From contig JAFGIC010000061.1 of NCBI GenBank assembly GCA_016929815.1, positions 1 to 32,404 on the forward strand: DNA of 32,404 nt. Direction: 5' to 3'. Shown here one piece after another: positions 982-24,092 of the stretch. Every line of letters starts with the position of its first letter. Position 1 is the stretch's first letter. This DNA comes from Deltaproteobacteria bacterium (GTDB taxonomy: Bacteria > Desulfobacterota > DSM-4660 > Desulfatiglandales > HGW-15). The notes under the pieces are model-generated. The model saw only the letters and a list, made by a program, of their open reading frames with translations, was not told the origin of the DNA and searched no databases. Both the position numbers and the translations under genes were made by a program.

Positions 982-1042
982 CTCTTTCTCAGCCGAAAGA
1001 TCGCAGGAATTCGGCAATCGCTAAAGGCATTTAAAACTTCCT

Positions 1043-1744
1043 CTATTGCGTTTGCCTCTGCTCCTCTATCTTTTCAATATATTCCTTAATATATTTCTCA
1101 AGCTCGACCCTCTTAGCCTGGACAAATGGCTCCTTTTCCATCAGCGATGCCAGGAGGCCTTTATTCTCATAGCTTGCCAGCAATTCCTCCGCTATAACGC
1201 ATAGCTCCGCATTATGTGTTCTTGATATATCAAGTTCCCTTAAAACAGTGTCGAGATCAAGCTGAAGATCCTGTTTTTCAATGTCAAGCTTGTTCATCCT
1301 CTTTTCAAGTTCTGCCGTTTCCGAGAGGCTCTTGTCCTGTGCCTCTTTTATTTCTCTATTCATTGTCTCCACTCTTTCCGTAAGCTCATTTACCTCGTCC
1401 TCAAGCAGTGCTATAATCTCATCCTTTTCAAATAAACCCTTCTCAATGTCCTTTTTGTCTTCCAGGACGCTGTCCTTTTCAATCTCCAGATTTCTGGTCT
1501 CTTCCATGGCCTTGGATACTGCCCCTTCCAGAGATGATTTCACGCGTGTCAGCTGGGTTGAAAGTGCATTCTTCTCCTGATATTTTTTATAGATCTGTTC
1601 TTTTTTCCTGTTCAAATCATCAATCATATCCTGTCCCAGACGAATCTCAGTTTTTAATTTAAAGGTTCCGTACAAAAGAAACCCGGAAAGCCCGTATCCG
1701 CAAAGAACCAGAACGATAATGATTATTGATTTAAACCTGGACAT
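1043..1744 (-). CDS. Membrane-anchored coiled-coil protein (N-terminal TM helix, ~200 aa heptad-rich E/K/L region), function unknown
   Basis: The track ORF starts with TTG at 1771. The ATG at 1744 gives MSRFKSIIIIVLVLCGYGLSGFLLYGTF (TM helix), with GAGG ~10 nt upstream and only 4 nt after the porin stop. The rest is charged and helical (EIEKDSVLEDKKDIEKGLFEKDEIIALLEDEVNELTERVETMNREIKEAQ). I recognised no family. Confidence 0.7.
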   Translation of the reverse strand: MSRFKSIIIIVLVLCGYGLSGFLLYGTFKLKTEIRLGQDMIDDLNRKKEQIYKKYQEKNALSTQLTRVKSSLEGAVSKAMEETRNLEIEKDSVLEDKKDIEKGLFEKDEIIALLEDEVNELTERVETMNREIKEAQDKSLSETAELEKRMNKLDIEKQDLQLDLDTVLRELDISRTHNAELCVIAEELLASYENKGLLASLMEKEPFVQAKRVELEKYIKEYIEKIEEQRQTQ

Positions 1745-1748
1745 TGGA

Positions 1749-3476
1749 TTAAAACCTCGCGTTAAGATCAAACATAAATGTATCTACTGCCAATGGAACG
1801 CCCAGTATCTCATTGGCGCTCATCCATCGTCCCGCGAGCCAGAAACGTTCCGAAAGACCGTACTGCCCTCCCAAGATCCATCCCTTTGTGTTTGTCCCGC
1901 CCAGCCAGAAATCCGAGTCCGTAAAGGCGTCCAATACGGAATCCGCCCCGAGACGCCTGTAAAACAGCGAGGCGTTCCATTCACCGAAGCCCCTGGGTGT
2001 GGGATATCCCACGGTCAACCCTGCCTGATAACCTGTTGTCTCCTCCGGATATTCACTGTAACCCATCCTTGCCGAGACCTCTTCCCGGTCAAAACCTATG
2101 TTTTTCACATAATCTCCCGTCAAGATAATATGAAAGGGGAACCAGCGCGCGTAGTCCAGCTCCGCCGTCAGATTCATGAGTTTATATTCCGCTGCAAGCG
2201 CCCATGTCTCATTGGATGAATCGGTATTGATATCAAAAAGGGAGTTCCCCACCTGCCGGAATAAAGGTTCAGTTTCGTTGGTATAGGTCCCACTGGGATC
2301 ATCAAAAAATTCCCCGCTTGTACCCTCAAAATTATAATAGGCCGCTGCTACCCTGGCGCTTAGACCAAGCGGTTTCTCGTAATTCATCCCCAGCTGCCAC
2401 CCGAAAAGCCACTTATCCTCCTGGAACAGTTCCAGTTCCTGGACAGGAAAGGCCCCCGCAATAACAAACCATTTTAAGGGGTGTTCCAGCAGCGTATCGG
2501 TTTCTATTGTCAGGGCCATGCCCTCAAAATTGACATCACTATCCCATACAAGGTCTGTTGAAAACCACGGACTCGCGAACCTTCCGGCAACGGCCGTGAC
2601 CCTGGGTATAAGGCCCCATTTGGGATAAGTCGGCTTGTATGTCCATTTAAGATACGCCCTGTCCAGGGTAACCGTGTCTTTATTAAGGTAATCGCCCATG
2701 GTATCGTTCGTAGAGATCGGGTCGCCGGTGTTTCCCGACGCGAGGCGGGCGCCTGCCTTTATCTCGCCCGCGTTTATCTCCGTGCCTTTATTCATGACAT
2801 CCGCCTCTACCGTAAGACGTATCCTGTAGCGGTATCTTGATCGATCGACCGTGGTGTTGACTATCTCATTGGCGTCAGGGTCATAGAGCAAATCATAATT
2901 ATCCTCATCATAAAAATCCTTCTGGTACCTTGCCCTGATATCTCCTCCCCATTCAATGCGTCCGGCCCAAGCTGAGTTTAATAGCTGCTCGTTTATATCA
3001 TCAGATAGCTGCCTCTCAACCTTGGTCACCCTGTCATCCAACAGACTCGATTTGGTCCTCAGCTCTTCTGTGATAAAATCCAGGTCTTCCCTATTCCTGG
3101 ATACATCTTCCTTTAATTCTTTGTCGGCATTCTCCGTAAGCCTTCTGAAATACTCCTCCTCATCCTGCTCCGGGATAATCCTTACGGCATCTCCCTCAGC
3201 TTCCCCGGAAAGGTCGCCGCTCCTATATCTTTCCATAAATGTTGCTGCCTCTTTTTCATTTATAACGCCCTTTGCAAGCAGCAGGCCGACCAGCGCCTCA
3301 ATGGTATCCACAGCCTCAGCAGGCGCATTGGCTTCACTCTCGGCCTTGATATGTGTTTCCGCAGTATCAACAGGCATCTCAGTTATATTAGGCTCTTCAC
3401 ATAGGCCATGTACGCTTAAAAGATTAATGAAAAACACAAAAGATATGCCCGCAACCATGTTGATAAACCTGTTCAT
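1749..3476 (-). CDS. Outer-membrane beta-barrel, putative-porin type, with long helical N-terminal periplasmic extension
   Basis: ATG at 3476 with GGAGAA 7 nt upstream. Signal peptide MNRFINMVAGISFVFFINLLSVHG. Residues ~90-165 are coiled-coil-like. Alternating beta-strand pattern runs from WGGDIRARYQ onward. The motif AGRFASPWFSTDLVWDSDVNFEG resembles the Pfam 'putative porin' family as I recall it. The C-terminal residue is Phe (DLNARF), typical of OMPs. Confidence 0.75.
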   Translation of the reverse strand: MNRFINMVAGISFVFFINLLSVHGLCEEPNITEMPVDTAETHIKAESEANAPAEAVDTIEALVGLLLAKGVINEKEAATFMERYRSGDLSGEAEGDAVRIIPEQDEEEYFRRLTENADKELKEDVSRNREDLDFITEELRTKSSLLDDRVTKVERQLSDDINEQLLNSAWAGRIEWGGDIRARYQKDFYDEDNYDLLYDPDANEIVNTTVDRSRYRYRIRLTVEADVMNKGTEINAGEIKAGARLASGNTGDPISTNDTMGDYLNKDTVTLDRAYLKWTYKPTYPKWGLIPRVTAVAGRFASPWFSTDLVWDSDVNFEGMALTIETDTLLEHPLKWFVIAGAFPVQELELFQEDKWLFGWQLGMNYEKPLGLSARVAAAYYNFEGTSGEFFDDPSGTYTNETEPLFRQVGNSLFDINTDSSNETWALAAEYKLMNLTAELDYARWFPFHIILTGDYVKNIGFDREEVSARMGYSEYPEETTGYQAGLTVGYPTPRGFGEWNASLFYRRLGADSVLDAFTDSDFWLGGTNTKGWILGGQYGLSERFWLAGRWMSANEILGVPLAVDTFMFDLNARF

Positions 3477-3570
3477 TAAATTTCTCCGAGTAATTAAGTT
3501 GGCATCACGAACAAACGTTCGCGTTCAATATCCGATAAAGCATGTAACTCTACATATGGCAATTACATCA

Positions 3571-4302
3571 CTATCCCTTTGATGAGACCCTGATCTTTAT
3601 GGACTTCGGCATACCCTCCGGCGGAACCTCATCGATCTGTATCTGCTTCATGGCGGCCTGGATCGCATTGTCCATTTTATTACTGCCTGAAGAGCCAAGT
3701 ATATCGAAGTCCGTTATCCATCCCTCATTATCAAGGACTATCTTAAGCGTAGCGTTAAGATTCCCTTCCGGTATGCCGCCGTCCTTTTCAAGCTCCCTGT
3801 TCAGACGCTCCATGATCTCCTTCTGGATCTTCTGTATATACCAGGCGTATCTCTTTAAAAGAGAACTGCTGCCGCTGCCGCCCGAATCTCCAAGAATTAT
3901 AGATCTCCCACCTTTCTTTCCTACAAGCCCGAATCCGTCCGATCCGGACGTCCCATCCGCGTCAATGCCCAGCTCTTCCCCAGCGGGCGTATCATCCGTA
4001 TTCTCGCTCATATCCTCCTGCGGTGAAGCTTCCTGGATGATCTCCTGTATCTCCTCCTCAATCGCAGGCTCAGGCGGTATCTCCTCCACCTTTTCAGGCT
4101 CGGGCGGCTTCTGTTCAACCACCTTTATCATCTGGATCTGCCGCACCTTCCTTGTCTCATCAACGGTTATGAGTTTTTTAACGACAACAAACCCTAAAAA
4201 GATCAGGATGACGGGAACCAGTCCGGAAATGACCCATGCCGCCGGATGGATCTTTTTTTTCCTTTTCTTTGTCTCACCCTTCAAGGCTGTCCCCCCTCTC
4301 AT
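3571..4302 (-). CDS. tonB: TonB-like energy transducer (N-terminal TM anchor, Pro/Glu-rich spacer, C-terminal TonB/TolA-like domain)
   Basis: The ATG overlaps the exbD stop (ATGA at 4299-4302). TM helix AAWVISGLVPVILIFLGFVVV. Spacer KPPEPEKVEEIPPEPAIEEE. C-terminal ~90 aa has a beta-alpha-beta pattern (ATLKIVLDNEGWITDFDILGSSGSNKMDNAIQAAM...). Position immediately after exbB-exbD. Confidence 0.75.
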   Translation of the reverse strand: MRGGTALKGETKKRKKKIHPAAWVISGLVPVILIFLGFVVVKKLITVDETRKVRQIQMIKVVEQKPPEPEKVEEIPPEPAIEEEIQEIIQEASPQEDMSENTDDTPAGEELGIDADGTSGSDGFGLVGKKGGRSIILGDSGGSGSSSLLKRYAWYIQKIQKEIMERLNRELEKDGGIPEGNLNATLKIVLDNEGWITDFDILGSSGSNKMDNAIQAAMKQIQIDEVPPEGMPKSIKIRVSSKG

Positions 4303-4715
4303 TTTACAATCCTCTGTGTTACCAGACCCAGTTGGCTGATCTCCAGCCTCTGCAGCAGGTCAAGTATATCAATGACGCTCTGATAATAAATCTTTTCATC
4401 CCCCTTTATGACCACGGGCAGGTTTGGGTCCGCGGCCTTGTATTGCCGCAGAAGGTTCTCCAGTTCCTGCATGGTCACGGGATAGGCATCCAGGTATATC
4501 TGCCCGCCCGAGTTAACGGTAATCGCCTTTGTCTTGGGCCTTGTAAGACTCGGGGCGGCGCTTGCCTTTGGAAGATTCACCTTGATCCCCTGGATGGCCG
4601 CGGTAACGGAGATAACGAAAACGACCAGCAGTGTCCATGCCAGGTCCAGCAGGGGGGTGACGTTTATCTCATCCAGGAGCTTGTTGTCCGATCCTGACGT
4701 CCTTCTTCTCCTCAT
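4299..4715 (-). CDS. exbD: ExbD/TolR-family biopolymer transport protein
   Basis: EINVTPLLDLAWTLLVVFVI matches the ExbD N-terminal signature (INVTPFIDVMLVLL in E. coli), including the TM Asp. The periplasmic domain has ITVNSGGQIYLD...VVIKGDEKIYYQSVIDILD. The ATG overlaps the exbB stop (ATGA at 4712-4715). Confidence 0.9.
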   Translation of the reverse strand: MRRRRTSGSDNKLLDEINVTPLLDLAWTLLVVFVISVTAAIQGIKVNLPKASAAPSLTRPKTKAITVNSGGQIYLDAYPVTMQELENLLRQYKAADPNLPVVIKGDEKIYYQSVIDILDLLQRLEISQLGLVTQRIVK

Positions 4716-6523
4716 TTCTCCTGCTCCTCATACTGTTCAAACATCGTTGTGAGTTCATCCATAAACAGATCCATCTCGCCTGTGGCCTTCCTGACCTTGA
4801 CGGCCAGATAGTTGTATCCGAACAGGGCAGGTATTGCCACGATCAGGCCGAAGACCGTTGTTGCCAGGGCCGAGGACACGCCGGGTGCAATGGCCGTGAT
4901 ACTCGCCTCCCCCGCCTCGGCCAGCGACGCGAAGGTATTCATGACGCCCCACACCGTACCCAACAGACCGAGAAACGGTCCTCCTGTTATGGCCATGGTA
5001 AGGAGCACCATCCAGGAATTGAGCGCCCTTGCCTCCTCCGCGTAGGACCTCTCCAGCGCGTTTTTGACCTTCTCAAGGGCTTTTTTAGATATCTTTACAC
5101 CGGCCTTCTCAGCATCACCGGAGATTTCCTCAATCGAGTCACCGTGCGCCATGGTATTGAATTCACGCCATCCTGCCGCGTATATCCTGTACAGGACCGA
5201 AGAAGGATAATCCGTGTCTTCATCTTCCTCTCGCGGAACAGGCCTTGAGTCTCTGAAAGATCCCATGAAGGCCCTGTCGTCTTTCTCTATATACCACAGG
5301 TTGAACGACTTTCCGATCATGACTATCCAGCTCATGACGGCAAAGATGATCAGGATCCCTATAATGATAAGCCCGTCAAGGGATATGTTTTTTGCGATGG
5401 TTGCGAAATAGAATGTTGGAAGTCCACCGCCCTCATAGATCTCCTCCTCTACAAATCCGCACATAAGGCTGTCCGGCGCCTGGCTTGCGTACAAGGCCCT
5501 GATCCATGCGTCCGACCTTACAAGATTTGATATATTTATTTCATCAATGTCGCCGGAAAAGCATGCCTCGCCTTTTACATCGGAGCCTATTGAGATGTCG
5601 GTCACATTCTCAAAGCTGAAGGAATCGATATCCGTCCATGTTATTTTCAGACTGTCAAGGAATATGGTTATTCTCTGTTTAGTGGCCGCCGTGAAGGCAA
5701 AATGTCGCCATTTATCTGTGGAGACGTCTGCGGTCTTCTCCAATGAATTTATTATATTGTCGCCTTCCTTTAACAGGACATATATCTTGCTCTCATCGAC
5801 CCTGACCTCCAGTGTCCGGCCCTCGCTATTCATCGCAAACAGACAGGAGTCGTCCTGTGGCATCAGGAGTTTTACCCAAAGAGAAAAGGTTATTCCGTCC
5901 TTGAAGCTCAGGGAAGGGGATGATGGAATCATGATCCTGTCGCCCGCGCCGTTCAGGCTCACCCCATTTCCCACAACTGATGGCAGTCCTTGCGTCCCCA
6001 TGAATGATCCGGCGTTATTTTTATAGGCGGTCGAATCCTCGGGAAGATTTTCCATCTCGCTAAAATGATAAACCGCTACCTGGTTGACATCATAGGTGCC
6101 TGCCGCGTCCTGCCCACCCATGGCGTTCTTGTTCCCGTAATACATCCTTATATAATCCTGATCCGAGCCCGCGAGTATCATGGGCACATTTACCCATACA
6201 AGGCCGATCTCGTCGATGCTGTCATAGTATTCTATATGATGTTTCAGGTCGGTCTCGTCATCCCCCTTGATAAACCTTATGTCCGAACCGTCATCCAGGG
6301 CCTTCGTAAAATCGAAATTGCCTGAATGCAGTCTTAGAAGGACAGGTGCTCCAACCAAATTCTCGGCTATATCCGAGCCTGTCTTCGTCGTATCGAAAGC
6401 GACCTTTTTCCGATATCCCCATTGATTATTCCACCAACTACTTTCTTCCGCGAACCCTGTCTCAACAAAAAAGAATCCCGCCGCCACAAATAAAAATATC
6501 AATGCCCTCAAAAAGTATTTCAC
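4712..6523 (-). CDS. exbB: MotA/TolQ/ExbB-family proton-channel protein with N-terminal periplasmic DUF2341 + LamG (concanavalin-like lectin fold) extension
   Basis: GTG start at 6523 with GAGGA 8 nt upstream. Signal-like N-terminus. DUF2341-like WGYRKKVAFD...DIRFIKGDDETDLKHHIEYYDSIDEIGLVWVNVP...IRMYYGN (~6118-6436). LamG-like VYHFSE...GNGVSLNGAGDRIMIP...ITFSLWVKL (~5488-6073). C-terminal three-TM ExbB core GGPFLGLLGTVWGVMNTF and IAPGVSSALATTVFGLIVAIPALFGYNYL (~4715-5401). Confidence 0.85.
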   Translation of the reverse strand: MKYFLRALIFLFVAAGFFFVETGFAEESSWWNNQWGYRKKVAFDTTKTGSDIAENLVGAPVLLRLHSGNFDFTKALDDGSDIRFIKGDDETDLKHHIEYYDSIDEIGLVWVNVPMILAGSDQDYIRMYYGNKNAMGGQDAAGTYDVNQVAVYHFSEMENLPEDSTAYKNNAGSFMGTQGLPSVVGNGVSLNGAGDRIMIPSSPSLSFKDGITFSLWVKLLMPQDDSCLFAMNSEGRTLEVRVDESKIYVLLKEGDNIINSLEKTADVSTDKWRHFAFTAATKQRITIFLDSLKITWTDIDSFSFENVTDISIGSDVKGEACFSGDIDEINISNLVRSDAWIRALYASQAPDSLMCGFVEEEIYEGGGLPTFYFATIAKNISLDGLIIIGILIIFAVMSWIVMIGKSFNLWYIEKDDRAFMGSFRDSRPVPREEDEDTDYPSSVLYRIYAAGWREFNTMAHGDSIEEISGDAEKAGVKISKKALEKVKNALERSYAEEARALNSWMVLLTMAITGGPFLGLLGTVWGVMNTFASLAEAGEASITAIAPGVSSALATTVFGLIVAIPALFGYNYLAVKVRKATGEMDLFMDELTTMFEQYEEQEK

Positions 6524-6584
6524 CTCATTAATCCTCGCTTTCCGAAATTCAAGTCCTCTTTATTCCATCACCGCGCTTTGTTTC

Positions 6585-6605
6585 GTTAGTCGTTAGGGGT
6601 TAGTC
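6585..6605. repeat. Tandem heptamer array, 3 units (GTTAGTC GTTAGGG GTTAGTC)
   Basis: Read directly in the tpsA-exbB spacer. Confidence 0.8.
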
Positions 6606-6736
6606 GCAAGGCCTTTCTATCACTTCTCCTTTAACCTCGTACCTTCCTGACTCAAGCAACCTCAGTAACCTCTACCCCTTTAAATTTACGGTAGTGACAG
6701 CGAAGCGTATTTAACCTGGGCAACAAATCCAACTGC

Positions 6737-6771
6737 CTCCGACATCCGTCATCTGCCATCCGTCATCCGTC
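6737..6771. repeat. Tandem heptamer array, 5 units (CTCCGAC ATCCGTC ATCTGCC ATCCGTC ATCCGTC)
   Basis: Read directly. Ends 2 nt from the tpsA stop codon (6774-6776). Confidence 0.9.
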
Positions 6772-6773
6772 CT

Positions 6774-9700
6774 CTATTCTCCCTCTTCTTCATAAAATCC
6801 CAGGACCTCTACATTAAGCCATTTGGTTATAAAATCAGCCAATGCCTTCATTGCCTCTTCCATGGAATCCTCCCGCGACCCGGTTATGGTCGATGTAGCC
6901 TCTTCCACCATGCTGGTGGTATCGGTTATACTGCTTATTCCTGCAACCACTCCCAGATTTACCGAAGCCGTGGAAACAGGCATGCCCACGGATCCCTGTG
7001 AAAAACTTATATTCTGCGCGTTCACAATATCCACCGCACCAAGGATAACGTTTGTGCCTGAAATGCCGGCTTCTCCGGCGTCTATCTCGCCTTCAGGTGC
7101 GAAGAGATAGACGTCTCCGGGAAGGGGCTCTTCCTTGGGTCCCTCAAGACCGTCCGGATCAAAGGTCAGGGTCCTGATTCCGCTTCCCACTGCGGGGGCC
7201 TCCCATTCAATAAACCATTTCCCGGTTTTCTCATCATAAACGGCATGGGACTCTGTTGCATTCACGCTTGCCTTTGAACCTCTTCCTGCATTTATGTTTC
7301 CCTTATCAGTCCAAACCGTTACATCCCCGCCGGCAAATGTCATCACCCTGGATTCGTTTACGTTTAGGTCTTCGACGGAGAATATGTTTATATCGCCTCC
7401 TGCGGTCGTATAGATGCCCGAATCGCTCTCCACACTTCCTGAATCGGTAAAGGTACTCTTTCCGACATTTATCTCTCCCAGGGCCGCGATATAGATACTT
7501 CCTGCTCCTCCTGTTATGTTGATCTGCGATTCAACCATGTCAATGTCGCCTGTCCCTGTACCGACATCTTTAAACAGGTTATACACGGCCTCTCTTCGGA
7601 GATTTTCCACAACGGCCTCCGCGCCTTCAATATCTCCTTCCGCCAAAAATTCACTGTATATCTCTCCTTGATCCCTGATTCTTCCGAAAAACTCATTGAG
7701 CTCATCAAGCGTTATATCCAGATCAACCCCCGAAAGTACGACCAGGTCATTTTCTTCGGGATCGAGATATACATTGTATTGGTTGCCGACCAGTTGGATT
7801 CCATCTGTAGTGCCGAGGTCGATGCTGTCACCTGCGATAACCATAAGCAGGCCCGGTCCCCCCTTTTCGATGCCGGTATAAAGCAGATCACCCGACAAAC
7901 TGGAGGAAAATGATATGTCCCGACCTGCCTTGATATAGGAGATATCATCTAAACCGGTATTTTGACCGTTATAATATATATCCAGTATGTCTCTTTCCGC
8001 AGTGATCTCCGTCTTCTTTGGCAGATAAAAGGCGATATCCTTGATATCCTGGCCCGCATCTATGATAACCGCTTTGTCATCGTCTCTGTGGGAAACGCCT
8101 TCGCCATGTTCATATCGAGTCAGTGAATTTATGACCGCCTCCACCTCGCTTGTGGTAGAGGTCTTATCTCCATAAACTTCATCGGCATTGAGATCTGACA
8201 TATATATGTTTCCCCTTTTCTCTTTACCGTTTTCAATATACTCCCCGCTGATGTCCCTTCCTGCTCTTAAATAAAGCTGTCCCTCGGATGAAGGCGCCAG
8301 GACAAAGCTGTCATTAAACAGGATATCCCGACCTGAGATTATCGACAAAGAGGCAGGCAGCATCTTCTGTTTCAATTTCTGGTTAATATTGCCGTAAAAT
8401 ATGGCATCTCCTGTTAACGAAACATCTCCGAATATTGCATTAAGATTCATCTCCGTATCCTCGGTATAGGACAGGTTCCAGGACGAATCGGAAGTAAAGC
8501 TGTCGCTCGCGAGGGTGGGATTAACTATAGACCCCAGTAATATCTTTCCGCCTGTTGTCAAGGAGACATTTGCATCGAGGAGTTCAATCTGCTGCCCCTC
8601 CATTCCGGTCTTTGTGCCGAAATCTCCCGCTGCATATAGTTCGCCCATACCGTCTGCAACAACAAATCTTCCGTTAATGTCGCCTCCTGAGTAGACATTG
8701 AGATTCCCTTCGGCGAAGTTTCCTATCCCGGCAGTAATATCACCTCCGGCCTTTATGTAAATATCCCCGCCCGACATGGCAACAATACCCTGGGACACGT
8801 CAAGGCCGTTATTTCCTGCGAAAGAGGCGCTCCAGTCCTTCCACACCTCCTGGGTCTCCGGATCATAGGCCATATAGACTTGATCCCATCCGTCATTTAT
8901 TGATGGCGACCCCAGGAGATTCCCCTTAAAATTAAGATTTATATCTCCCCCTGCCTCATAGTACCAGTAGGATATCAACGCTTCGGATGTTGCGGCGCCC
9001 AGGGATCTTATTGTTCCAAGATAGCCGCTCTTTCTTTTTAACTGGATATCGCCGTCTACTTCCAGGTCTATATCCCCAAGGGAGGATTGGATAGCGCCGC
9101 CGTTTATTATCAGCGATCCGCCAACATCTCCGGATATTGAACCATCATATGTACTCAGGTTATAGCCTATGCCGCTGTATGAAATCAGGGTATTTAAGTT
9201 CACCTTGTCGATCATTGTGTCTCCGGCTGATGAGAATCCTATATCCCCCCTTTCCGTATAAACAAGGACACCTGAGTTGATAGTCAGGTCTCCATTATCT
9301 ATTTCTGTAAAGGCGCCCAGGGGATTGGCGGCTGTGAGATCCGACCCGGCTGAAAGGTCTATGTTCCATCCTGTTGCTCCGGTATCTTGATACAGATAAT
9401 GTTTGTTTGTTGGCGCATCGGTGATATCCCCGTTAATAATGAGATCTCCGGCAGCCCTGAGGTACAAAAATCCTGCCGTCTCACCAGTCCCGTCTACATC
9501 CGCATCATAGTGCCAGTCCGTCAAACTCCATGCATTTTTTACTGTAAGGTCTCCTATACTTGTTATCTCCAGTCCAGGGACGAAATTAAGGTCAGTGCCG
9601 TCGCTGATCTCCAGGCCGCCGAATATCTCGGACTTTAATGTCGAGGCATCCTCCATGTAAGCCTCCGTTTCCGTCTTCCATTGGCTGATTTCATTATCTA

Positions 9701-15700: not shown

Positions 15701-16439
15701 ATATCTGATCATTAAGTTCTATCTCTTTAAGCCTGATCTCCTCACCTGCGGCAAGGGCCGCCCACCCAAGATCGGCGGAAATCTCTCCGTTGTTTTCCAC
15801 CGTTGTGCCCAGCAAAAAGACGGAGCCGCCGTCAGCAGCAGTGATTGTCCCGTGATTTGACACCACTCCGTTCTCGTTAAGTTCCTCAGCTGGGTTTATA
15901 TAGTTCTCCCTTGCGAAACTCAAAGTGCCATCGAGAAAATCATCGTCTGCCATGTTGAGGGAAGAGGCCACAAGAGACCCAACATTGACGGTGGAATTGG
16001 GAGAAAAGAATATGCCGTTCTGATTTATCAGGTAGACCTGGCCGTCCGAAGTTAATCTTCCGTATATAAGGCTCGGGCTCTGATCATATATTCTGTTCAA
16101 TGCCTTCCAGGAGGTGTTTTCCTGCTGGTCGAAATGCACCCATGCATTTGCACCTATGTTGAACGAGTCCCAGTCGATGATGGCGCTACTCTCATCCTGA
16201 TGCACGACCAGCCCGTTGTATGATGATTTTTCAAGGGATGAGACCCCCTGTACAATCCCTTTAAGGGCAGGAATGGCGTTTACCGACGGCGCTGTTATAT
16301 CTGAGGATGTGGAGCCGTAGAACCCGGGAATCAATGCCGCGCCGAAGACCGAGGATGTCTGGGCAATAAAGAATGACGTCACCGTAATGACTGTAAATAG
16401 TCTTTTGTGTGATTTTATTAATTTTATCAAACGCAGCAT
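6774..16439 (-). CDS. Giant (3221 aa) two-partner-secretion exoprotein (TpsA, filamentous-haemagglutinin family)
   Basis: ATG at 16439 with AGGAAAG upstream. Signal peptide ...FFIAQTSSVFGA. TPS-domain motifs IIDWDSFNIGANAWVHF and SLIYGRL..GQVYLINQNGIFF (~15450-16300). The remainder is G/S/D/I-rich and beta-helix-like. The C-terminal ...GDVYLFAPEGEIDAGEAGISGTNVILGAVDIVNAQNISF... is, as I recall, the signature of the FHA-associated DUF3739-type domain (unverified). I found no Cys in the translation. Confidence 0.93.
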   Translation of the reverse strand: MLRLIKLIKSHKRLFTVITVTSFFIAQTSSVFGAALIPGFYGSTSSDITAPSVNAIPALKGIVQGVSSLEKSSYNGLVVHQDESSAIIDWDSFNIGANAWVHFDQQENTSWKALNRIYDQSPSLIYGRLTSDGQVYLINQNGIFFSPNSTVNVGSLVASSLNMADDDFLDGTLSFARENYINPAEELNENGVVSNHGTITAADGGSVFLLGTTVENNGEISADLGWAALAAGEEIRLKEIELNDQIYKRIYIAENPGDVYNYEDGALSADLGQAGMYGRTVTQNGIIRSVTAVTNNGRVELLASEKVTLGEDSVTSTPVSSSSEEFNNTFIFHGGEVLVGSLYSGLGDDEESAADDNKLTPDLVELYGTVLASSGNVDIEAGGRIYLGEDSAIDVSGLWVTMPVSEKIVNVQLNSVELADDYGQKDGLLLGETITISSLLGSSIGDVSNYIISRGDLTAEEMATEGGTIYLNAGSGDIIIREGGYLDASGGGVNYSGGSIDTTKLLSVNNVVYDIDKAEEWETYKGILGDFAKIHDRYGVKETYSGIYYGGVAPIKSYINGFQEGNDAGKISLIASGMVLEGTIDASVTQGDFQIYYPHEDEEEIYDAMGISVPAGGTLEIGDVLSVAPIYSDLDHVVQEVVVDSSVDQLPENFNALEPFPEDREGITHISSSLINDAGLGTLRLYSRTGLTIEEDASISLLAGGSFFARARSIVIEGDITVPGGLIDLTLNSNITTDEGDDYVSQKDLGHERIFLASGSSLSVAGEQIDNSEYGKGLDVDYETGLLEGGTILISDETLNGEGVIADAGSSIDVSGGHEIDEDGEVSGGDAGSVHVQGVTIIFEGDLMGYSTQGMNGGSISVHAGNVYVLPDDMFTVRSLIGADYTIPDEIRNTLILDDDFFDNTGFTDITLKAFDGITISSGAVLTPSYIKFTASDRTGSIEDYGSVGLRYGSYSKLTSVTDDYLGDSSIRLLADEEFDGYVMPAQEDVSGTVEIKSGAEVNVGAGGGINLEGRNIEFSGTLSAPGGSIDADAQGITIHPGGFLSAAGYIKRDTEPLAKDLPLGFSAVDGGNVTLKAGKGGLIIEEGAVIDVSGSDAVNDYVWSEDGDIVTVQTASAPGSVTLSFFGDLVMEGQLKAGAEMESLNGGALVIAKENDINPMDMSGEEISSYLSMGFDSITLESWSEIFFTGSMDIDVPRDITIDAPVVSSASDSDISITSPWITLANTYDYNKEVKELVKGDASLTLEGGFIDISGYITLSSFESAELISTTDIRLSDYYYNESYQNTRWGGLEQTGDLVLQADRIYPDSLTSFTIKTEGDLTILDNGDNLTGSIYSAGSNLSLEAANIYLYGDIYAPLGDVTLIALSEDGIVYLGDESTLSTYMDAYINYGLIDDEALFWGMPDKNGTIDTDSEVLSAPVGSVTVEGENVVMAEGAEIDVSGGGTVFAYRFLSGTDGTEDPLGKDDQYVILPENSVYSPGKTIIIGENEEIPAGEYYLLSDEYAFVDGAVILTDIGTGVNLSEYPMTEEGYSVISGMTATAGTDLTSSVETHYYSIRDAEDVLSEGYYEISEMTAGDAGSVTMTGNTTILEGAIFGEALDDTYSGAALKVSGTDIIITAGGNDWVLPDNFDPTGEIHEQIAGEMIDKLVLSDETVSGMGLESIILGDKESTSKLTFEDGVSLNVKGIELNAGDLITINDNVLIAALSEGSESNTDTDSLDGRIVFNAPEGSLRIEDTAMIHASDNIELNANLFDIQGQLQVDNSSISITSDTIYFISDNDSDRTGTGAYITQGLWTYLASSEVMELGEGSEIFFKDSFDLNVGSELVLNASLIDTDDSVINISSGSVVFTNSGNESEETVSSSPGALRVEADEIYLSEGTITFDGFSGIHLYSSGDVTIQGTGAFITGSADLSIEAASVASSLLETSEGYDAINYSIDTGTGAVTIASNGGGYSEAIIAGGNFEITAEDIIQTGVLNMNGADIAMTTSGSGSDSGIFLEDGAIIYAAGNDFAPGGSVELVAEDGIVSIGNGARIDVSAGGQGDAGEIEIVSPTYSAVMEGNLYGQSEENGIGGSFSIDTAAIADLSSLIDILTDGGFNEAVELRAREANIVLASEDTLTASEVKISADESDGQGDIDIYGAIDSSGAKDGSDIALYAGGSLTLYSGSSITGSSSGADITLSGEGGIVFQGDAAIDAGGAEDGSVVFRSFKTDSALNMTLNGSISGADEVTALAVKVYDEDDHDGVIDNEISQWKTETEAYMEDASTLKSEIFGGLEISDGTDLNFVPGLEITSIGDLTVKNAWSLTDWHYDADVDGTGETAGFLYLRAAGDLIINGDITDAPTNKHYLYQDTGATGWNIDLSAGSDLTAANPLGAFTEIDNGDLTINSGVLVYTERGDIGFSSAGDTMIDKVNLNTLISYSGIGYNLSTYDGSISGDVGGSLIINGGAIQSSLGDIDLEVDGDIQLKRKSGYLGTIRSLGAATSEALISYWYYEAGGDINLNFKGNLLGSPSINDGWDQVYMAYDPETQEVWKDWSASFAGNNGLDVSQGIVAMSGGDIYIKAGGDITAGIGNFAEGNLNVYSGGDINGRFVVADGMGELYAAGDFGTKTGMEGQQIELLDANVSLTTGGKILLGSIVNPTLASDSFTSDSSWNLSYTEDTEMNLNAIFGDVSLTGDAIFYGNINQKLKQKMLPASLSIISGRDILFNDSFVLAPSSEGQLYLRAGRDISGEYIENGKEKRGNIYMSDLNADEVYGDKTSTTSEVEAVINSLTRYEHGEGVSHRDDDKAVIIDAGQDIKDIAFYLPKKTEITAERDILDIYYNGQNTGLDDISYIKAGRDISFSSSLSGDLLYTGIEKGGPGLLMVIAGDSIDLGTTDGIQLVGNQYNVYLDPEENDLVVLSGVDLDITLDELNEFFGRIRDQGEIYSEFLAEGDIEGAEAVVENLRREAVYNLFKDVGTGTGDIDMVESQINITGGAGSIYIAALGEINVGKSTFTDSGSVESDSGIYTTAGGDINIFSVEDLNVNESRVMTFAGGDVTVWTDKGNINAGRGSKASVNATESHAVYDEKTGKWFIEWEAPAVGSGIRTLTFDPDGLEGPKEEPLPGDVYLFAPEGEIDAGEAGISGTNVILGAVDIVNAQNISFSQGSVGMPVSTASVNLGVVAGISSITDTTSMVEEATSTITGSREDSMEEAMKALADFITKWLNVEVLGFYEEEGE

Positions 16440-16542
16440 GTTTTAATCTTTCCTGCTTGTTAAAATATTGATTTCACCACAGAGACGCCAGCCTTCGCTG
16501 AAGCTACGGCACGGCAGGCTGAGAACACAGAGTTGAGTTAAT

Positions 16543-16579
16543 TTTTCATTTGCCCCGAGAAAGTCGGGACAAATGAAAA
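16543..16579. other. Strong hairpin (16-bp stem, 1 mismatch, 5-nt loop) in the tpsB-tpsA spacer
   Basis: ttttcatttgccccga gaaag tcgggacaaatgaaaa. No flanking U-tract on either strand. Confidence 0.8.
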
Positions 16580-16697
16580 GGACTCATCCTGCCTGCGGCA
16601 GTAGTAAAGACCATTTCTCGTGTACAATCTGAATATACATGTAAATTTTGCCGATATTTTAATTGCGCCTTCGCCGTGATATAAAAACATAAAGTCT

Positions 16698-16777
16698 TAT
16701 TTGACAGGATTAACAAGATTTACACGATTTGTTTTCATAATAATAAATTACATCATGTTTATCCTGTTCATCCTGTC
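16698..16777. repeat. Inverted repeat GACAGGATTAACAAGAT / ATCCTGTTCATCCTGTC (15/17) with 41-nt AT-rich spacer; includes a conserved 25-nt motif
   Basis: Arms at 16703-16719 and 16761-16777. TATTTGACAGGATTAACAAGATTTA (16698-16722) recurs at 24465-24489 with 23/25 identity. Confidence 0.8.
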
Positions 16778-16813
16778 TGATTTATTCTTTCTATGTGTCT
16801 GATCTCCGTCTCT

Positions 16814-18499
16814 TTAAAATCCGTACTTCACCCGGAAATAGAAACTATCATCCCCTTTTTTAACATTATCCGTCTCTTCCATGGCCTTTGCCCAGTCAAC
16901 CTTGTACTCCAACCCTTTCAATAAAGTCCCCTTGATCCCCGCACCTGCACCATGGATCATATTTGATTTATCTTCCCCCTCAAGGGGATTCTTCCTCCAT
17001 ACCTTGGCCATGTCATAAAAAAGATAAGCGATGCCGTTTACGTTCCCCTTTTTGCCCCACAGGCGGTTAATATCCGGGAAATATACGTTAATGGTACCGT
17101 GAAAAGCATTATCACCTGTGATCTCACTTTCCTTATATCCCCTTACGTTCTCCATTCCTCCAGCAACAAACTGCTCATTTGATATAAGGGGCTCACTGGC
17201 AATCTGTCCGTCAACATTTGCCGAAAGGCTCATCCCAAGGGGAAGCTTGTTGATCCTCTCAATCCCCGCGACAAGATAAAGGTAGTCGCCCCTTGCCTTG
17301 TATCGCTTGATCTCAAATTCCCTCTGGTCTGCAATCAGGTTTCTGAATGCCATATTTAATCCCAGATTAAACTGTGTTTTACCCTGATCATCCATGATTA
17401 CACCGGTGTAGGATGCCGATAGAGACATATATTTGATGGGCGTCTTCAAGCCTTTCTGCTCGGTGTCTTGAAAATTCACATCCTCATTAAAGTCCTTATA
17501 ATCCAGACCAAGGGTTACGTTATGGGAATATCTTTCCAGGGAAGGCAACGGGATAATATACCTGTAGCCGAAAATATTGCCCTCTCCGATCACCTGAAAC
17601 CCTTCGCTGAATGCATTGTCGCTGTCGGACCAAACGGCGTAGAACACCTGTGTATGGTAATCATTCCAAGGAGCAGTAAACACATAGGATCCCACCAGGA
17701 GCTGGACCTCATCCATATCCCGTGGAGATGTCTGGTATTGAAGCGCAATTGTATGCTCCCTCTGCCATAGATTGTCATACTGTATCGACCCGTTTATCCT
17801 ATAATCTGTTGTGTTATGGGACGAACGGTTGTTTAACTCCAGGCTGCCGTGCAAAGGGAGTTTGTCCGTGACCTTAAGTTCAATATCAATCGCCCCCAGC
17901 TCCTTTGCCGGAACGAGTGTGGGAGAGACATTAAAGTCCGTATTCCTGTTTATCAGGGCGAACTCTTGTTGTATGATCGGGAGATATATAAGCCCGCCTT
18001 CCCTGAGGCTCGGAAGCCGTTTCAGGATGCTCTCCTGTGTAAAATATCTGTTGCCGGTCACATTCACCTTTCTGATCCTGCTTTCAATGACCTCCAGCCT
18101 GATTGTGCCGTCCTCAACATCCTGTTCAGGGATATTCACAAAAACCGCCGGATAACCGGACTTATGATAAAAACCCTCAATAGAGTCCCTTGCGTCTTCC
18201 ACATCCGCGGCGGTTTTTGACTCTCCGACATAGGGTGAAAGGAGTTCTTTCATGTCTTCCTCATTCCACAGAGAATTGCCTTCAATGTAAAATTCCTTTA
18301 TCTCAAAGGTCACTACTTTTGTGTCTTCCTGTTCCGGTTCCTGGCTGAAGGACGATGGGATAACCGCATTCAAGATCAACAGCGTTTGTGTCAACAGATA
18401 AAAGACTGTCCTGATTTTTAGTTTAAGCTTATTAAGACAGCTATTAACATTTCGCTCCTCCGCAGCTGGAATCCCATTGAAATTTTTCATGCAGATCAT
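16814..18499 (-). CDS. TpsB outer-membrane translocator (ShlB/FhaC/HecB family, POTRA + 16-strand barrel)
   Basis: POTRA-like FEIKEFYIEGNSLWNEEDMKELLSPYVGESKT..DVEDARDSIEGFYHKSGYPAVFVNIPEQDVEDGTIRLEVIESRI..VNVTGNRYF. Barrel region with alternating pattern. Terminal Phe (RVKYGF). Sits directly upstream of tpsA. AGGA lies 5 nt before the ATG at 18499. Confidence 0.9.
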   Translation of the reverse strand: MICMKNFNGIPAAEERNVNSCLNKLKLKIRTVFYLLTQTLLILNAVIPSSFSQEPEQEDTKVVTFEIKEFYIEGNSLWNEEDMKELLSPYVGESKTAADVEDARDSIEGFYHKSGYPAVFVNIPEQDVEDGTIRLEVIESRIRKVNVTGNRYFTQESILKRLPSLREGGLIYLPIIQQEFALINRNTDFNVSPTLVPAKELGAIDIELKVTDKLPLHGSLELNNRSSHNTTDYRINGSIQYDNLWQREHTIALQYQTSPRDMDEVQLLVGSYVFTAPWNDYHTQVFYAVWSDSDNAFSEGFQVIGEGNIFGYRYIIPLPSLERYSHNVTLGLDYKDFNEDVNFQDTEQKGLKTPIKYMSLSASYTGVIMDDQGKTQFNLGLNMAFRNLIADQREFEIKRYKARGDYLYLVAGIERINKLPLGMSLSANVDGQIASEPLISNEQFVAGGMENVRGYKESEITGDNAFHGTINVYFPDINRLWGKKGNVNGIAYLFYDMAKVWRKNPLEGEDKSNMIHGAGAGIKGTLLKGLEYKVDWAKAMEETDNVKKGDDSFYFRVKYGF

Positions 18500-18510
18500 G
18501 TAAATCCTGT

Positions 18511-19800
18511 CTAATTCCCATTTTCCGTTTTTTGTGTTATCCCCATATCCAGCATCGCCAGCCTCAACTCATCCCTCATGTCATAGGCATACTTGAAGCC
18601 GGAGATCTTTTTCACGACCCTTCCGTCAGCATCCATGATGACAATAAACGGAAAACCGTCCTGTCCGTAAAGTTCCTTGAGGCTCTGATCCTTGTCCGAA
18701 TTCCCCTTTATCCAAATAAATTCATCCCTTAACATGGTTACCCTTGTGTCTTTAAGTGTCTCATCGAATAATTTCCCACTCCATGGGCACCAGGACGCGT
18801 AAAGGACAAGCACAACAGGTTTTCCTGTCTTATCTGCTACCGCCAATCCCTCATCATGATCCTCATGCCATGAGATTTCCCAATCCGTAAGACTTGAGGC
18901 CTTTGAGACGGAGATGACATCTATATCCAGAACCAGGTTCTTTCCTGCCAGGGGGTGATTACAATCCACAGTGAAGGTCTTTTCGTCTATCGAGACGATT
19001 TTTCCTGTTTCAGTGTCCACATTAAAGTCTGCGCCCAGCTTAGGCTCAAGTGTTATTATTACACTGTCGTCCTTCAGGACAATGCTCGTATCTCCAAATT
19101 CATCCTTTGATATAAATCTCCCTTTTACATCGGCCTCAAGTATTACCTGCCCCCCGGTTATATCAACGATCTTATGATCAAAGTATGGTATGATTCTTAC
19201 TGTGCCTCCCTTCTCCGGCGTTGATCTAAATTGCTCAATGAACTCTTCCTGAGTCAGTCTTGTCATCCTGGGTACTTTTCTTGTTGAGGAAAATATCTTA
19301 ACCTTGTCATCTGTTCTGGGGCCATAGGCATCCTCCGGCAGGACAACTGCCTGCCTGGTCTCACCCGTCTTCATGCCCAGCACGGTATCATGAATACCTG
19401 GAAACTGTTCCCTCTTCCCGGCCAGGACCGTCAAAGGCGTTTTTAGCGGAGATTCCTGATATTCGGCTGCCTTTGTCTTTGCGGTATCTTCGCTGAACCC
19501 CGGGATATTTGTCCTCAACAGTTCGCCTGTCTCCAGGCTCAACGAATAGTTGACGGCTAAAAGGTCTCCTTCCTGAACAATCCCTGAAATCTCCGCGAGA
19601 TCGATATCTACGGTGCCGTCGACCTTTTCTTTTGCCTCAGTATAAGCCGATTCAAGGGCATTGATTAAATCGTCTTGTTTTGGATGTTTATCCCCTGCCG
19701 ACACTTCATGAGGCATGCCCAAAAATAAAAAGACCCCCAGAAAACACAAGGCAATATTAAAGGGAATGATCTTCCTGTTATTGTTTGTCTTCCTTTTCAT
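18511..19800 (-). CDS. Periplasmic SlyD-like FKBP peptidyl-prolyl isomerase fused to a thioredoxin-fold domain with a CxxS motif
   Basis: I prefer the internal ATG at 19800 (AGGA 6 nt upstream), which gives signal peptide MKRKTNNNRKIIPFNIALCFLGVFLFLGMPHEVSA. FKBP motifs VQEGDLLAVNYSLSLETGELL, FPGIHDTVLGMKTGE and DCNHPLAGKNLVLDIDVISV. C-terminal Trx-like KPVVLVLYASWCPWSGKLFDE...GFPFIVIMDADGRVV. Confidence 0.8.
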   Translation of the reverse strand: MKRKTNNNRKIIPFNIALCFLGVFLFLGMPHEVSAGDKHPKQDDLINALESAYTEAKEKVDGTVDIDLAEISGIVQEGDLLAVNYSLSLETGELLRTNIPGFSEDTAKTKAAEYQESPLKTPLTVLAGKREQFPGIHDTVLGMKTGETRQAVVLPEDAYGPRTDDKVKIFSSTRKVPRMTRLTQEEFIEQFRSTPEKGGTVRIIPYFDHKIVDITGGQVILEADVKGRFISKDEFGDTSIVLKDDSVIITLEPKLGADFNVDTETGKIVSIDEKTFTVDCNHPLAGKNLVLDIDVISVSKASSLTDWEISWHEDHDEGLAVADKTGKPVVLVLYASWCPWSGKLFDETLKDTRVTMLRDEFIWIKGNSDKDQSLKELYGQDGFPFIVIMDADGRVVKKISGFKYAYDMRDELRLAMLDMGITQKTENGN

Positions 19801-20647
19801 TGGCCGTCCTATCTTTCTTTGCCATGACATCACAGACAAGAGTTTCGTAGCCGAAGGGGTGTCCATAATCTATTGTGAACCTATCCTCTTCAACAACCGT
19901 GACCCTTCCAACTATAACTCCTGATCTGATGAGCTGTCCCTCATGGATATCGATAATTATTTTATAATAATCTCCCGCGTCATAAATGGTTCCTTTGCCA
20001 AGCGGAGTATAAACCATGGTTCCTTCCTTTGCTTCAAGGCGCACCTCCATCTCCTTTTCGGTGACCGAAACTACCGTAATTGATACCCCTTCAATTTCTT
20101 CAGATAAAACAATATCGCCGGGCACAGGTGCCCTGCCCTGTGATTTTTCAAAGGCAACAGGATTAACCTTCTGTTTCTTAGGCTGTCTTCTGACCCGCGA
20201 AAGGCTCAGGTATCTCTCATCTTCATTCAGCCCAAGGGTGCTTTCTGATGTTATTTCAAAGGATGCGCTGGATCCTTCTTCCATGCCTGCAACAACCAGG
20301 CTCAGTTCCTCCAGAATTTCATTCTCCAGGGATTTTAATTTTCCATAATCAGGGCCTCCTTTTCCGCTGCCTGCAACTATAGGTATGGGCTCATATTCCT
20401 TTAAGGGAAGGAATATGCCGGCCTTTGCCTTATTTTCATCCTTTAGGACATCTGCATCAGTGGTCATCACAATGCCTCCGTCCTTAAGGCGGCATGTGAA
20501 GTCCACCGTTACCTTATCGCCCGCCTTGATAACTCGATGTTCAGTTACTATATTTTTATTGGCTGTCTGACATCCTGTTATTGAAATAATGACACCTAAA
20601 GAAATGAGAAGAGATAAAACAGTGCCTTTAAACATATTGATATTCAT
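19778..20647 (-). CDS. Lipoprotein SlyD-like FKBP peptidyl-prolyl isomerase
   Basis: Lipobox ISITGC after a hydrophobic signal peptide. FKBP motifs IKAGDKVTVDFTCRLKDGGIV, LSLVVAGMEEGSSASFEI and IDYGHPFGYETLVCDVMA. The start could be ATG 20647 or 20635. Confidence 0.75.
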   Translation of the reverse strand: MNINMFKGTVLSLLISLGVIISITGCQTANKNIVTEHRVIKAGDKVTVDFTCRLKDGGIVMTTDADVLKDENKAKAGIFLPLKEYEPIPIVAGSGKGGPDYGKLKSLENEILEELSLVVAGMEEGSSASFEITSESTLGLNEDERYLSLSRVRRQPKKQKVNPVAFEKSQGRAPVPGDIVLSEEIEGVSITVVSVTEKEMEVRLEAKEGTMVYTPLGKGTIYDAGDYYKIIIDIHEGQLIRSGVIVGRVTVVEEDRFTIDYGHPFGYETLVCDVMAKKDRTANEKEDKQ

Positions 20648-20814
20648 TTTTCTATATTTGACCTCACCTGTTCAACCGGCTTGCCGGCTTTATTATTCTC
20701 TGTGTCTTTACCTTGCACATCGAGCCTTTCGCCTTGAACCTTTTTTAAATATGCCCCTGTATTATTAAGAGACTCTTAGCTTAAAGTTAGACTTTTATTA
20801 ATTTTCAATCTTAT

Positions 20815-20843
20815 AAAAAAAGGGCCTCTGGAGAGGCCCTTTT
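20815..20843 (-). terminator. Rho-independent terminator downstream of the PstS-like gene (palindromic, could act bidirectionally)
   Basis: The GGGCCTC (20822-20828) / GAGGCCC (20833-20839) stem has a 4-nt loop. It is flanked by A7 (20815-20821, i.e. T7 on the minus strand) and TTTT (20840-20843). Confidence 0.85.
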
Positions 20844-24066: not shown

Positions 24067-24092
24067 TTTCATCAGTTCCTTTCCGATTAGAT

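Follow-up and report, generated by a model that had tools for sequence, protein, structure and literature searches.

Two-partner secretion (TPS) is taught as a self-sufficient, energy-free pathway of two genes, one for an exoprotein (TpsA) and one for its outer-membrane transporter (TpsB). The present analysis concerns a locus in which such a pair is encoded together with a TolQ/TolR-like envelope motor and which is located on contig JAFGIC010000061.1, a metagenome-assembled contig of 32,404 bp labelled "Deltaproteobacteria bacterium" at NCBI; the whole of this contig is referred to as the window. The closest described system is the pdt/exbB2 locus of Pseudomonas aeruginosa (PA0690–PA0699), in which the TPS pair likewise adjoins homologues of exbB, exbD and tonB, followed by a putative porin, a helical protein and a periplasmic isomerase. 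Published maps of strain PAO1 give the order vreR...phdA-pdtB-exbB2-exbD2-tonB4-PA0696-PA0697-PA0698-PA0699 and place the cluster in the PhoB and sigma-VreI regulon (PMC7035377; PMC2729926). The overexpression of sigma-VreI induces PA0690 (tpsA/pdtA), PA0692 (tpsB/pdtB), exbB2, exbD2, PA0696–PA0698 and PA0699, which encodes a PpiC isomerase, and the same regulators have been tied to TPS genes, exbBD and PA0696 homologues in P. fluorescens, P. entomophila, Burkholderia vietnamiensis, Rhodopseudomonas palustris as well as Janthinobacterium (PMC2729926). In an annotation of 2020, PA0695 is named tonB4, PA0696 is taken for a putative porin and PA0697 for a helical protein, and the Ton-like genes exbB2-exbD2-tonB4 are still termed uncharacterised (PMC7035377). 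In addition, when phosphate is limiting for P. aeruginosa, PdtA, PA0696 and PA0698 rank with its most enriched proteins (PMC9769906).

This type of cluster is, hence, already known, and the combination of TPS with Ton-like genes, to which a preliminary description of the window had drawn attention, is not new, the architecture being that of the pdt/exbB2 locus and the link having been noted in 2009 (PMC2729926). The literature on DUF2341, DUF3739, tonB4 and TPS together with TolQ yielded no explanation of the association, and a 2025 survey of MotAB relatives treats DUF2341 merely as an unexplained appendage, its supplement giving no list of carriers (PMC12505986).

Relation to the pdt/exbB2 locus and synteny across lineages

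Judged from gene order and domain content, the window is best explained as a deltaproteobacterial member of a widespread envelope cluster, of which the phosphate-starvation locus of P. aeruginosa would be the studied prototype. The connection was made by way of a Burkholderia locus (L072) with genes for FecR, a Phd-like protein, TpsB, a DUF2341-ExbB fusion, ExbD, a TonB-like protein, Porin_5 (1.6e-189), a coiled coil of 229 residues and PpiC, the order of which agrees, one gene after another, with that published for PAO1. P0107, a protein of B. vietnamiensis, is 90% identical to the ExbB fusion of this locus; among the 120 matches listed for the Burkholderia query, which were sequences of Burkholderiaceae, of Dyella or from metagenomes, P. 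aeruginosa ExbB2 did not appear. Porin_5 and coiled-coil homologues fill the positions of PA0696 and PA0697 in both the window and L072, and a fusion of DUF2341/LamG with MotA_ExbB is present at the exbB2 position in the window and in Burkholderia. A phosphate-related neighbourhood is also common to the window and the P. aeruginosa cluster. The two differ, however, in several respects. The window has the order tpsB-tpsA-motor, whereas P. aeruginosa has tpsA-phd-tpsB-motor; the foldases of the window are of the FKBP/thioredoxin type and are encoded upstream, whereas that of P. aeruginosa is a PpiC protein encoded downstream, no PpiC domain being found in the window by Pfam scans; and the window is devoid of vreAIR, phdA and PA0698 homologues, a PhoB-like regulator ending the block instead.

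The co-occurrence of the TPS genes and the motor was determined in both directions. In the forward direction, DUF2341-ExbB relatives were aligned (A1), and this alignment, as the query against a collection of one genome per species, matched more than 531 places, of which the best 80 were fetched with 10-kb flanks and compared with the window proteins by tblastn; an alignment query was needed, as a genome scan with the single ExbB-fusion protein gave no matches. TPS genes were detected in 65 of the 69 loci with at least 3 kb of upstream sequence, the gene directly upstream of the motor being the 3' end of tpsA in 34 and tpsB in 28 (62 together). On the other side of the motor gene, ExbD was present in 78 of the 80 loci, and ExbD and Porin_5 were both present in 59 of the 62 with at least 6 kb of downstream sequence; TonB-like and coiled-coil homologues follow in a conserved order and are too divergent for detection everywhere. 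These loci belong to Desulfobacterota, Geobacterales, Nitrospirota, NC10, Alpha-, Beta- and Gammaproteobacteria and Verrucomicrobia. For the reverse test, the C-terminal ~450 residues of TpsA were aligned (A3) and used to collect 80 metagenomic loci, and a DUF2341-ExbB gene was located downstream in 44 of the 52 with at least 5 kb of downstream sequence. Of the 165 related loci retrieved in all, the majority had the same gene set.

TPS genes are rare, with a handful per genome, and adjacency to a motor within ~20 kb would be expected by chance at about the order of one per cent. Because the observed counts stand against so low an expectation, the association is a property of the gene family and not one of this contig. 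The co-occurrence anticipated in the preliminary description was thus confirmed in both directions, and homologous TPS pairs proved to be syntenic with the motor and porin genes across distant lineages. At the level of gene neighbourhoods, these results demonstrate that a TPS subclass, defined by the C-terminal ~450 residues with DUF3739, is genetically locked to a TpsB without a plug helix, and that the same lock covers the TolQ/TolR-like pair, the TonB/TolA-like arm, the stalked Porin_5 protein and the membrane-anchored coiled coil. By the same demonstration, the genes of the block form one conserved functional module, and a functional coupling of the TPS pair and the motor is well supported.

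Some loci depart from this arrangement. L024, L032 and L036 have the motor/ExbD/TonB/Porin_5 set with no detectable TPS gene within 7–10 kb upstream, the porin of L036 being located upstream of the motor, and L062 has neither a detectable TPS gene, in only 4.3 kb of upstream sequence, nor a detectable porin. The TPS genes of these four loci may be located elsewhere or be absent.

Components of the block and their neighbourhood

Every long reading frame of the window is on the minus strand, and the genes were assigned by Pfam and NCBIfam scans of 17 window proteins (Table 1). The preliminary description had counted ten genes running head to tail in 1043–20647. All of its junctions were reproduced on recomputation (in transcription order, −23, +11, +374, +250, −4, −4, +94, +4 and +61 nt, with both 4-nt overlaps being ATGA), but the span 1043–20647 holds nine co-directional genes, and the response regulator lies outside it. 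This regulator is the last gene of the block, with no kinase after it and no open reading frame in 1–249. At the other end, a GC hairpin with a T-run, 3' of the PstS-like gene, is a clear upstream boundary of the block; it was found by direct reading, the terminator pattern scan not having listed it. Terminator scans gave no coding-strand site in either of the two long spacers (6524–6773 and 16440–16813), and no Rfam family matched anywhere in the window.

The 374-nt spacer that separates tpsB from tpsA downstream of it is AT-rich and contains, besides the hairpin given in Table 1, a 33-nt imperfect inverted repeat (16703–16777) and a weak promoter-like site (16685–16656), and the 250-nt spacer contains short direct repeats, TCCGnCATCCGTC and GTTAGTCG, each present twice. 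In relatives, the tpsB-tpsA junction lies anywhere between an overlap of 31 nt and a gap of 64 nt (four relatives), and the tpsA-exbB junction measures 13 to 22 nt (three relatives). Because the same junctions are tight there, the two long spacers are specific to this contig, and the arrangement in the ancestor was operon-like; the spacers could be remnants of an insertion.

Table 1. Positions of the features in the window, listed in the direction of transcription
Feature	Position (nt)	Strand	Basis
Small PEP-CTERM/VPLPA-CTERM proteins (three)	31068–31769; 23494–24072; 22230–23036	−	
Surface-type protein, 1449 aa (He_PIG, Big_9, fn3, ZU5)	24519–28868	−	
PstS-like periplasmic binding protein, 431 aa, own transcription unit	20888–22183	−	Pfam PBP_like_2
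Intrinsic-terminator-like hairpin, GGGCCTC-TCCA-GAGGCCC and T-run	~20814–20840	−	Read from sequence
Lipoprotein (lipobox ITGC), divergent FKBP/IF-domain chaperone, 289 aa	19778–20647	−	Pfam FKBP_C weak, 0.003
Periplasmic FKBP, IF and thioredoxin-like protein, 429 aa from ATG at 19800	18511–19800	−	Pfam
TpsB outer-membrane transporter, two POTRA and Omp85/ShlB barrel	16814–18499	−	POTRA_2 1.6e-17, ShlB 3.9e-17
Hairpin with 16-nt arms in the tpsB-tpsA spacer	16543–16579	−	No T-run after it on the coding strand
TpsA exoprotein, 3221 aa	6774–16439	−	Pfam, NCBIfam
Motor A: signal peptide, DUF2341 and Laminin_G_3, MotA_ExbB, three-helix TolQ-like membrane domain	4712–6523	−	Pfam
Motor B: TolR/ExbD-like, 138 aa, ATGA overlap at both ends	4299–4715	−	ExbD 3.5e-26
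TonB/TolA-like arm: N-terminal transmembrane helix, Pro/Glu-rich spacer, TonB-type C-terminal domain	3571–4302	−	TonB_2 4.5e-10
Porin_5 outer-membrane barrel with ~170-aa N-terminal periplasmic extension	1749–3476	−	Pfam 2.4e-112
Inner-membrane-anchored coiled coil, 233 aa, N-terminal transmembrane segment, PA0697 position	1043–1744	−	Sequence
OmpR-family response regulator	250–1017	−	Pfam/NCBIfam; PhoB best-scoring family, below cut-off

With respect to the motor, the large subunit (motor A in Table 1; Pfam MotA_ExbB, 3.3e-29) scored better with the NCBIfam model of TolQ (6.4e-41) than with that of ExbB (6.8e-24), and the small one (motor B) better with TolR (1.1e-24) than with ExbD; all NCBIfam equivalog scores of the motor were below cut-off, those of TolQ and TolR being the best. 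A structure model of motor A, with a predicted local distance difference test score (pLDDT) of 86, was matched by Foldseek with E. coli TolQ in TolQRA at a template modelling (TM) score of 0.83 and an identity of 26–28%. These scores and the fold match, which put the subunits nearer to TolQ/TolR than to ExbB/ExbD, fit the likeness to Tol- and Agl-type motors that had been suggested earlier. The N-terminal ~350 residues of motor A match lectin-like jelly rolls such as the binding domain of botulinum toxin and the lectin domain of a trans-sialidase (Foldseek), and this domain must be periplasmic because of the signal peptide and the TolQ topology.

In PDB profile comparison, the TonB-like protein was closest to HasB (1.1e-4), followed by TonB and TolA. 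Its family (alignment A5) has a nearly invariant Gly/Asp-rich segment, LGLDAxGxAGSDxFGLxGxKGGR, between the Pro-rich spacer and the C-terminal domain, and the motif LGLDAxGxAGSDxFGL is not, to our knowledge, one of classical TonB or TolA. The window has, as TonB systems require, an ExbB/ExbD-type channel and a TonB C-terminal domain; Plug and TonB_dep_Rec gave no match in the 17 scanned proteins, and a classical TonB uptake system was rejected, as no TonB-dependent receptor is present. The motor had been described as receptor-less, which is correct with regard to TonB-dependent receptors and doubtful otherwise, because the Porin_5 barrel has a conserved periplasmic stalk. This barrel is the obvious candidate for the outer-membrane partner of the motor. 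Its extension consists, in this order, of one to three copies of LIxLLxxKGxIxxEEA, a short strand motif and a helical stalk (alignment A2). The strand motif is VRVxYVPE in proteobacterial members, with the strict pattern matching 34 of 68 sequences, and the Porin_5 profile matches the stalked porin OmpM (8bys/8bym, E 7e-6). The window query detected weak syntenic homologues of the coiled coil in 28 loci, and the Burkholderia query in 43.

As in type Vb secretion, a TPS-domain exoprotein is encoded in the window adjacent to a two-POTRA transporter of the ShlB type; the plug helix H1, a feature that is typical, though not strictly defining, of type Vb TpsB proteins, is lacking. The top PDB match of the TpsB, modelled with a pLDDT of 82, was CdiB (6wim). 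In alignment A4, the 39 TpsB members are without the N-terminal helix H1 and the linker of FhaC and CdiB, only ~8–11 residues lying between the signal peptide and POTRA1, and residue 36 of CdiB aligns with residue 48 of the query. The TPS domain of the TpsA spans residues 78–241 (~nt 15717–16208; PF05860, 7.6e-24; TIGR01901, 2e-20), and DUF3739 spans residues 3037–3155 (~nt 6975–7331; 7.6e-31), within the conserved C-terminal ~450 residues. The protein is cysteine-free and very acidic, with 16.3% D+E and 4.4% K+R. Its C-terminal region is conserved up to the last residues (alignment A3), with the motifs GDINAGRGSKTA, GSGIRTLTYDPDG and IDAGEAGI and an end made up of a strand-like WLxVxVxGF and an acidic tail; several gammaproteobacterial homologues have a Cys pair in the tail instead. 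A profile search of the C-terminal alignment against the PDB gave no meaningful match and no solved relative.

The foldases, which the preliminary description had taken to be dedicated to the system, were found to be conserved accessories. The larger one matched FKBP_C (2.2e-6), FKBP26_IF and Thioredoxin_7 (1.1e-10), and the lipoprotein is its paralogue over ~238 residues (E 2e-9), with the IF-domain FKBP 1ix5 as its top PDB match (4.7e-5). In five loci (L161–L165) around TpsB relatives, 58–72% identical plus one at 52%, a gene for 272–292 residues and an FKBP-thioredoxin gene were located directly upstream of tpsB in all five. In 18 of the 80 genome loci, among these 18 loci of Nitrospiraceae, Geobacter, NC10, Bradyrhizobium and Burkholderia, the gene after that for the coiled coil encodes a PpiC isomerase. 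Because the isomerase is FKBP here and PpiC in other lineages, a periplasmic prolyl isomerase is a recurrent accessory from two unrelated families. The thioredoxin-like domain of the larger foldase has CPWS, that is, CxxS and not CxxC, at residues ~338–341 from the ATG at 19800, whereas the presumed client TpsA has no cysteine. One of the five loci (L165) is that of Geotalea uraniireducens Rf4 (CP000698), a cultured and genetically accessible carrier of the cluster in which the FKBP pair is present too and tpsB is parted from the FKBP-thioredoxin gene by an inserted transposase of the ISL3 family (8624–9865 of L165).

In searches of the genome and metagenome loci, the response regulator was not conserved. 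The PstS-like protein has a weak NCBIfam match to PstS, all of its PDB matches are PstS proteins, and its R-x-x-GSGT anion loop aligns with theirs; its gene ends in its own terminator and has no pstCAB genes nearby. L162, L163 and probably L164 have it in the same place beside the cluster, and PstS-related genes are also present near L008–L010 and L094. In L163 and L164, the FKBP pair comes after a giant He_PIG/ZU5 protein gene, a gene for ~245 residues and the PstS-like gene, so that the conserved neighbourhood reaches beyond the block. In L162, whose TpsB is 59% identical, genes for a beta-propeller phytase and a TonB-dependent receptor (1–3307) are located beside the He_PIG, PstS-like and FKBP genes. 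Elsewhere in the window and unrelated to the block, 30184–30930 of the minus strand encodes a DUF1573 protein, scored above cut-off (4.5e-31) by the OS_HP2 family (seleno)protein model.

A scan of the window for Pho boxes gave 24 matches, with 20.5 expected and none at a promoter position, and a stricter scan of the 80 genome loci (at most two mismatches to CTGTCATNNNNCTGTCAT) gave 13 matches in 1.43 Mb. Three of the Pho-box-like sites, at 9861 of L026, 4172 of L042 and 8115 of L056, all proteobacterial loci, are located at most ~160 nt upstream of exbB or tpsB and are a post hoc lead. Because of the PstS-like neighbour, the phytase gene of L162 as a further pointer to phosphorus scavenging, the PhoB-like regulator and the P. 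aeruginosa data, the use of the block under phosphate limitation is plausible.

What the motor may work on

The reading that we favour, at not quite an even chance, is that the motor works on the TpsA exoprotein and thereby drives, holds or releases its filament. The foldases would keep the 3221-residue, cysteine-free and acidic TpsA export-competent in the periplasm, and TpsB would thread it outward while the conserved C-terminal domain remains periplasmic; the C-terminal parts of FhaB and CdiA are held in the periplasm during secretion. The proton-driven motor could then pull, via the TonB-like arm, on the C-terminal domain of TpsA or on the barrels, with the porin stalk and the coiled coil bracing the arm, and it is this pull that would drive, hold or release the filament. 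Deployment under phosphate limitation may be indicated by the PstS-like neighbour and the PhoB-like regulator. We favour this reading because the link to the TpsA C terminus, the plug-less TpsB, the lectin-like domain of the motor and the dedicated foldases would fit work on TpsA better than uptake. A more specific form of it, which we regard as possible and no better than doubtful, is that the cluster encodes a so far undefined variant of type Vb secretion, run on protons and carried by hundreds of genomes in different phyla. There, the TolQR-like motor, with five lectin-like domains on top of it in the periplasm, would grip the TpsA C-terminal domain via the TonB-like arm, TpsA would be threaded through the plug-less TpsB, and the porin and the coiled coil would serve as a trans-envelope stator, with active extrusion, tension, retraction or release of the exoprotein on demand as the outcome.

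The components could also be read as a capture system like that of the Hxu proteins, for which HxuCBA provides the precedent (review PMC5422565): TpsA would bind or free a scarce nutrient, likeliest phosphorus, the motor, via the TonB-like arm, would gate its import through Porin_5, and TPS secretion would proceed unassisted. The linkage of the porin to the motor, seen in 59 of 62 loci, is as close as that of the TPS genes, the motif VRVxYVPE in the conserved extension of the porin could act as a TonB box, and the arm's C-terminal domain is nearest to that of HasB, a dedicated TonB. The PstS-like neighbour, the phytase and TonB-dependent receptor of L162 and the P. aeruginosa Pho/VreI regulon, in which the cluster is located beside secreted phosphatases, would also suit nutrient capture. 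However, the barrel has no plug domain and no match to a TonB-dependent receptor family, we know of no precedent for the gating of a plug-less porin by TonB, and the block has no inner-membrane importer. An exoprotein with 16.3% D+E and 4.4% K+R would moreover be odd as a binder of phosphate anions, and the lectin-like motor domain, the plug-less TpsB, the foldases and the link to the TpsA C terminus would be left unexplained. We consider such energised uptake rather unlikely, while giving it serious weight.

A Tol-Pal-like brace or a signalling device, which would tether or steady the outer membrane around a very large filament or else inform regulators of the filament's state, with no work on TpsA or on a substrate, seems improbable. 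Both in sequence and in structure, the best matches of the motor are TolQ and TolR, and the porin resembles OmpM, an outer-membrane tether with a coiled-coil stalk, as a brace would lead one to expect; however, Pfam scans found no homologues of TolB, Pal or CpoB in the window, and a pure brace gives no reason for a reciprocal tie to a single TpsA subclass. With respect to signalling, the P. aeruginosa cluster adjoins VreA, which resembles a receptor, has a predicted TonB box and passes signals to VreR/VreI (PMC2729926), and FecR homologues flank 8 of the 80 genome loci, including those of Burkholderia, Bradyrhizobium, Methylocella and Dyella. Genes for an extracytoplasmic function (ECF) sigma factor and FecR are absent, however, from the window and from most loci, so that signalling cannot be the general role, and the lack of conservation of the response regulator also speaks against it. 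That the TPS pair and the motor are merely adjacent and have no joint function is highly improbable: the two long spacers, of 374 and 250 nt, which break the block, and the weak promoter-like site in the first of them would allow for separate units, but the synteny is reciprocal and conserved across phyla, the corresponding spacers of relatives are 13–64 nt or overlapping, and the genes are co-induced in P. aeruginosa. A chance run of ten genes is ruled out by the conserved synteny, and both the taxonomic spread and the variable gene order speak against a mobile-element artefact.

Several points weigh against the reading that the motor of this cluster works on TpsA. The direction of its work, whether export, retention or import, is inferred only, and the computed results do not separate action on TpsA from energised uptake through the porin. 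Classical TPS secretion uses no energy source beyond folding (PMC5422565). In P. aeruginosa, transposon mutants in tpsA, tpsB, PA0695 and PA0696 were unchanged in one virulence assay (PMC2729926), an assay that is uninformative on secretion. The correspondence with PAO1 runs through the Burkholderia locus L072 and the published gene maps. The partner was missing within the fetched flanks in 4 of the 69 forward and 8 of the 52 reverse loci; some of the motor-less reverse loci may have the alternative order with tpsA downstream of the motor. Finally, phosphate is linked to the block in this organism by neighbourhood alone, no Pho box standing out in the window.

Taken together, the functional linkage of the TPS pair to the motor is strongly backed by comparative genomics, and to that extent the interpretation given in the preliminary description is partly supported. 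The cluster is ancient and widespread and defines a large TPS subclass which, from Desulfobacterota to Pseudomonas, is bound to a TolQR-type motor of its own, together with a TonB-like arm, a stalked porin and foldases, and it supplies a context for three domains of unknown function, DUF2341, DUF3739 and Porin_5. The question that it poses is whether a type Vb exoprotein is driven or controlled by the proton-motive force, or whether this force powers the uptake of what the exoprotein catches under phosphate starvation. This is tractable in P. aeruginosa PAO1, for which transposon mutants exist, and in Geotalea uraniireducens Rf4.

Comparison with known systems

The hxuCBA locus of Haemophilus influenzae resembles the window in combining the gene of a TPS exoprotein with that of an outer-membrane protein dependent on TonB-type energy, and it offers a model of nutrient capture at the surface. 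HxuC, however, is a plugged TonB-dependent receptor that relies on the housekeeping TonB, whereas the window has a stalked porin and its own motor. Tol-Pal shares with the window a motor that is best matched by TolQ and TolR, the superposition on TolQ being that described above, and a membrane-anchored third protein that spans the periplasm. Unlike Tol-Pal, the window has no TolB, Pal or CpoB, its motor scores are below the TolQ and TolR cut-offs, its TolQ-like subunit has a lectin-like domain of ~350 residues, and the partner is a porin and not a lipoprotein.

The Agl-Glt apparatus of Myxococcus couples an adhesin at the cell surface to a TolQR-type motor, to periplasmic proteins of the TonB-C type and to barrels in the outer membrane. 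The comparison is an analogy only, the adhesin of the window being a TPS exoprotein; there were no Glt-specific components among the Pfam matches of the window, and no search was aimed at Glt homology. The OmpM porins of diderm Firmicutes (8bym/8bys) have, like the window porin, an N-terminal periplasmic extension with a helical stalk before the barrel. The match covers part of the barrel, and the window porin differs from OmpM in having no SLH domain and in its LIxLLxxKGxIxxEEA head and strand motif.

The TPS pair itself is comparable to FhaB/FhaC and CdiA/CdiB, with which it shares the TPS domain, a 16-strand TpsB barrel preceded by two POTRA domains, and a giant exoprotein of the beta-helical type. 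It is set apart from them by a TpsB without H1 and the linker, by the family-specific C-terminal domain of its TpsA and by its dedicated motor.

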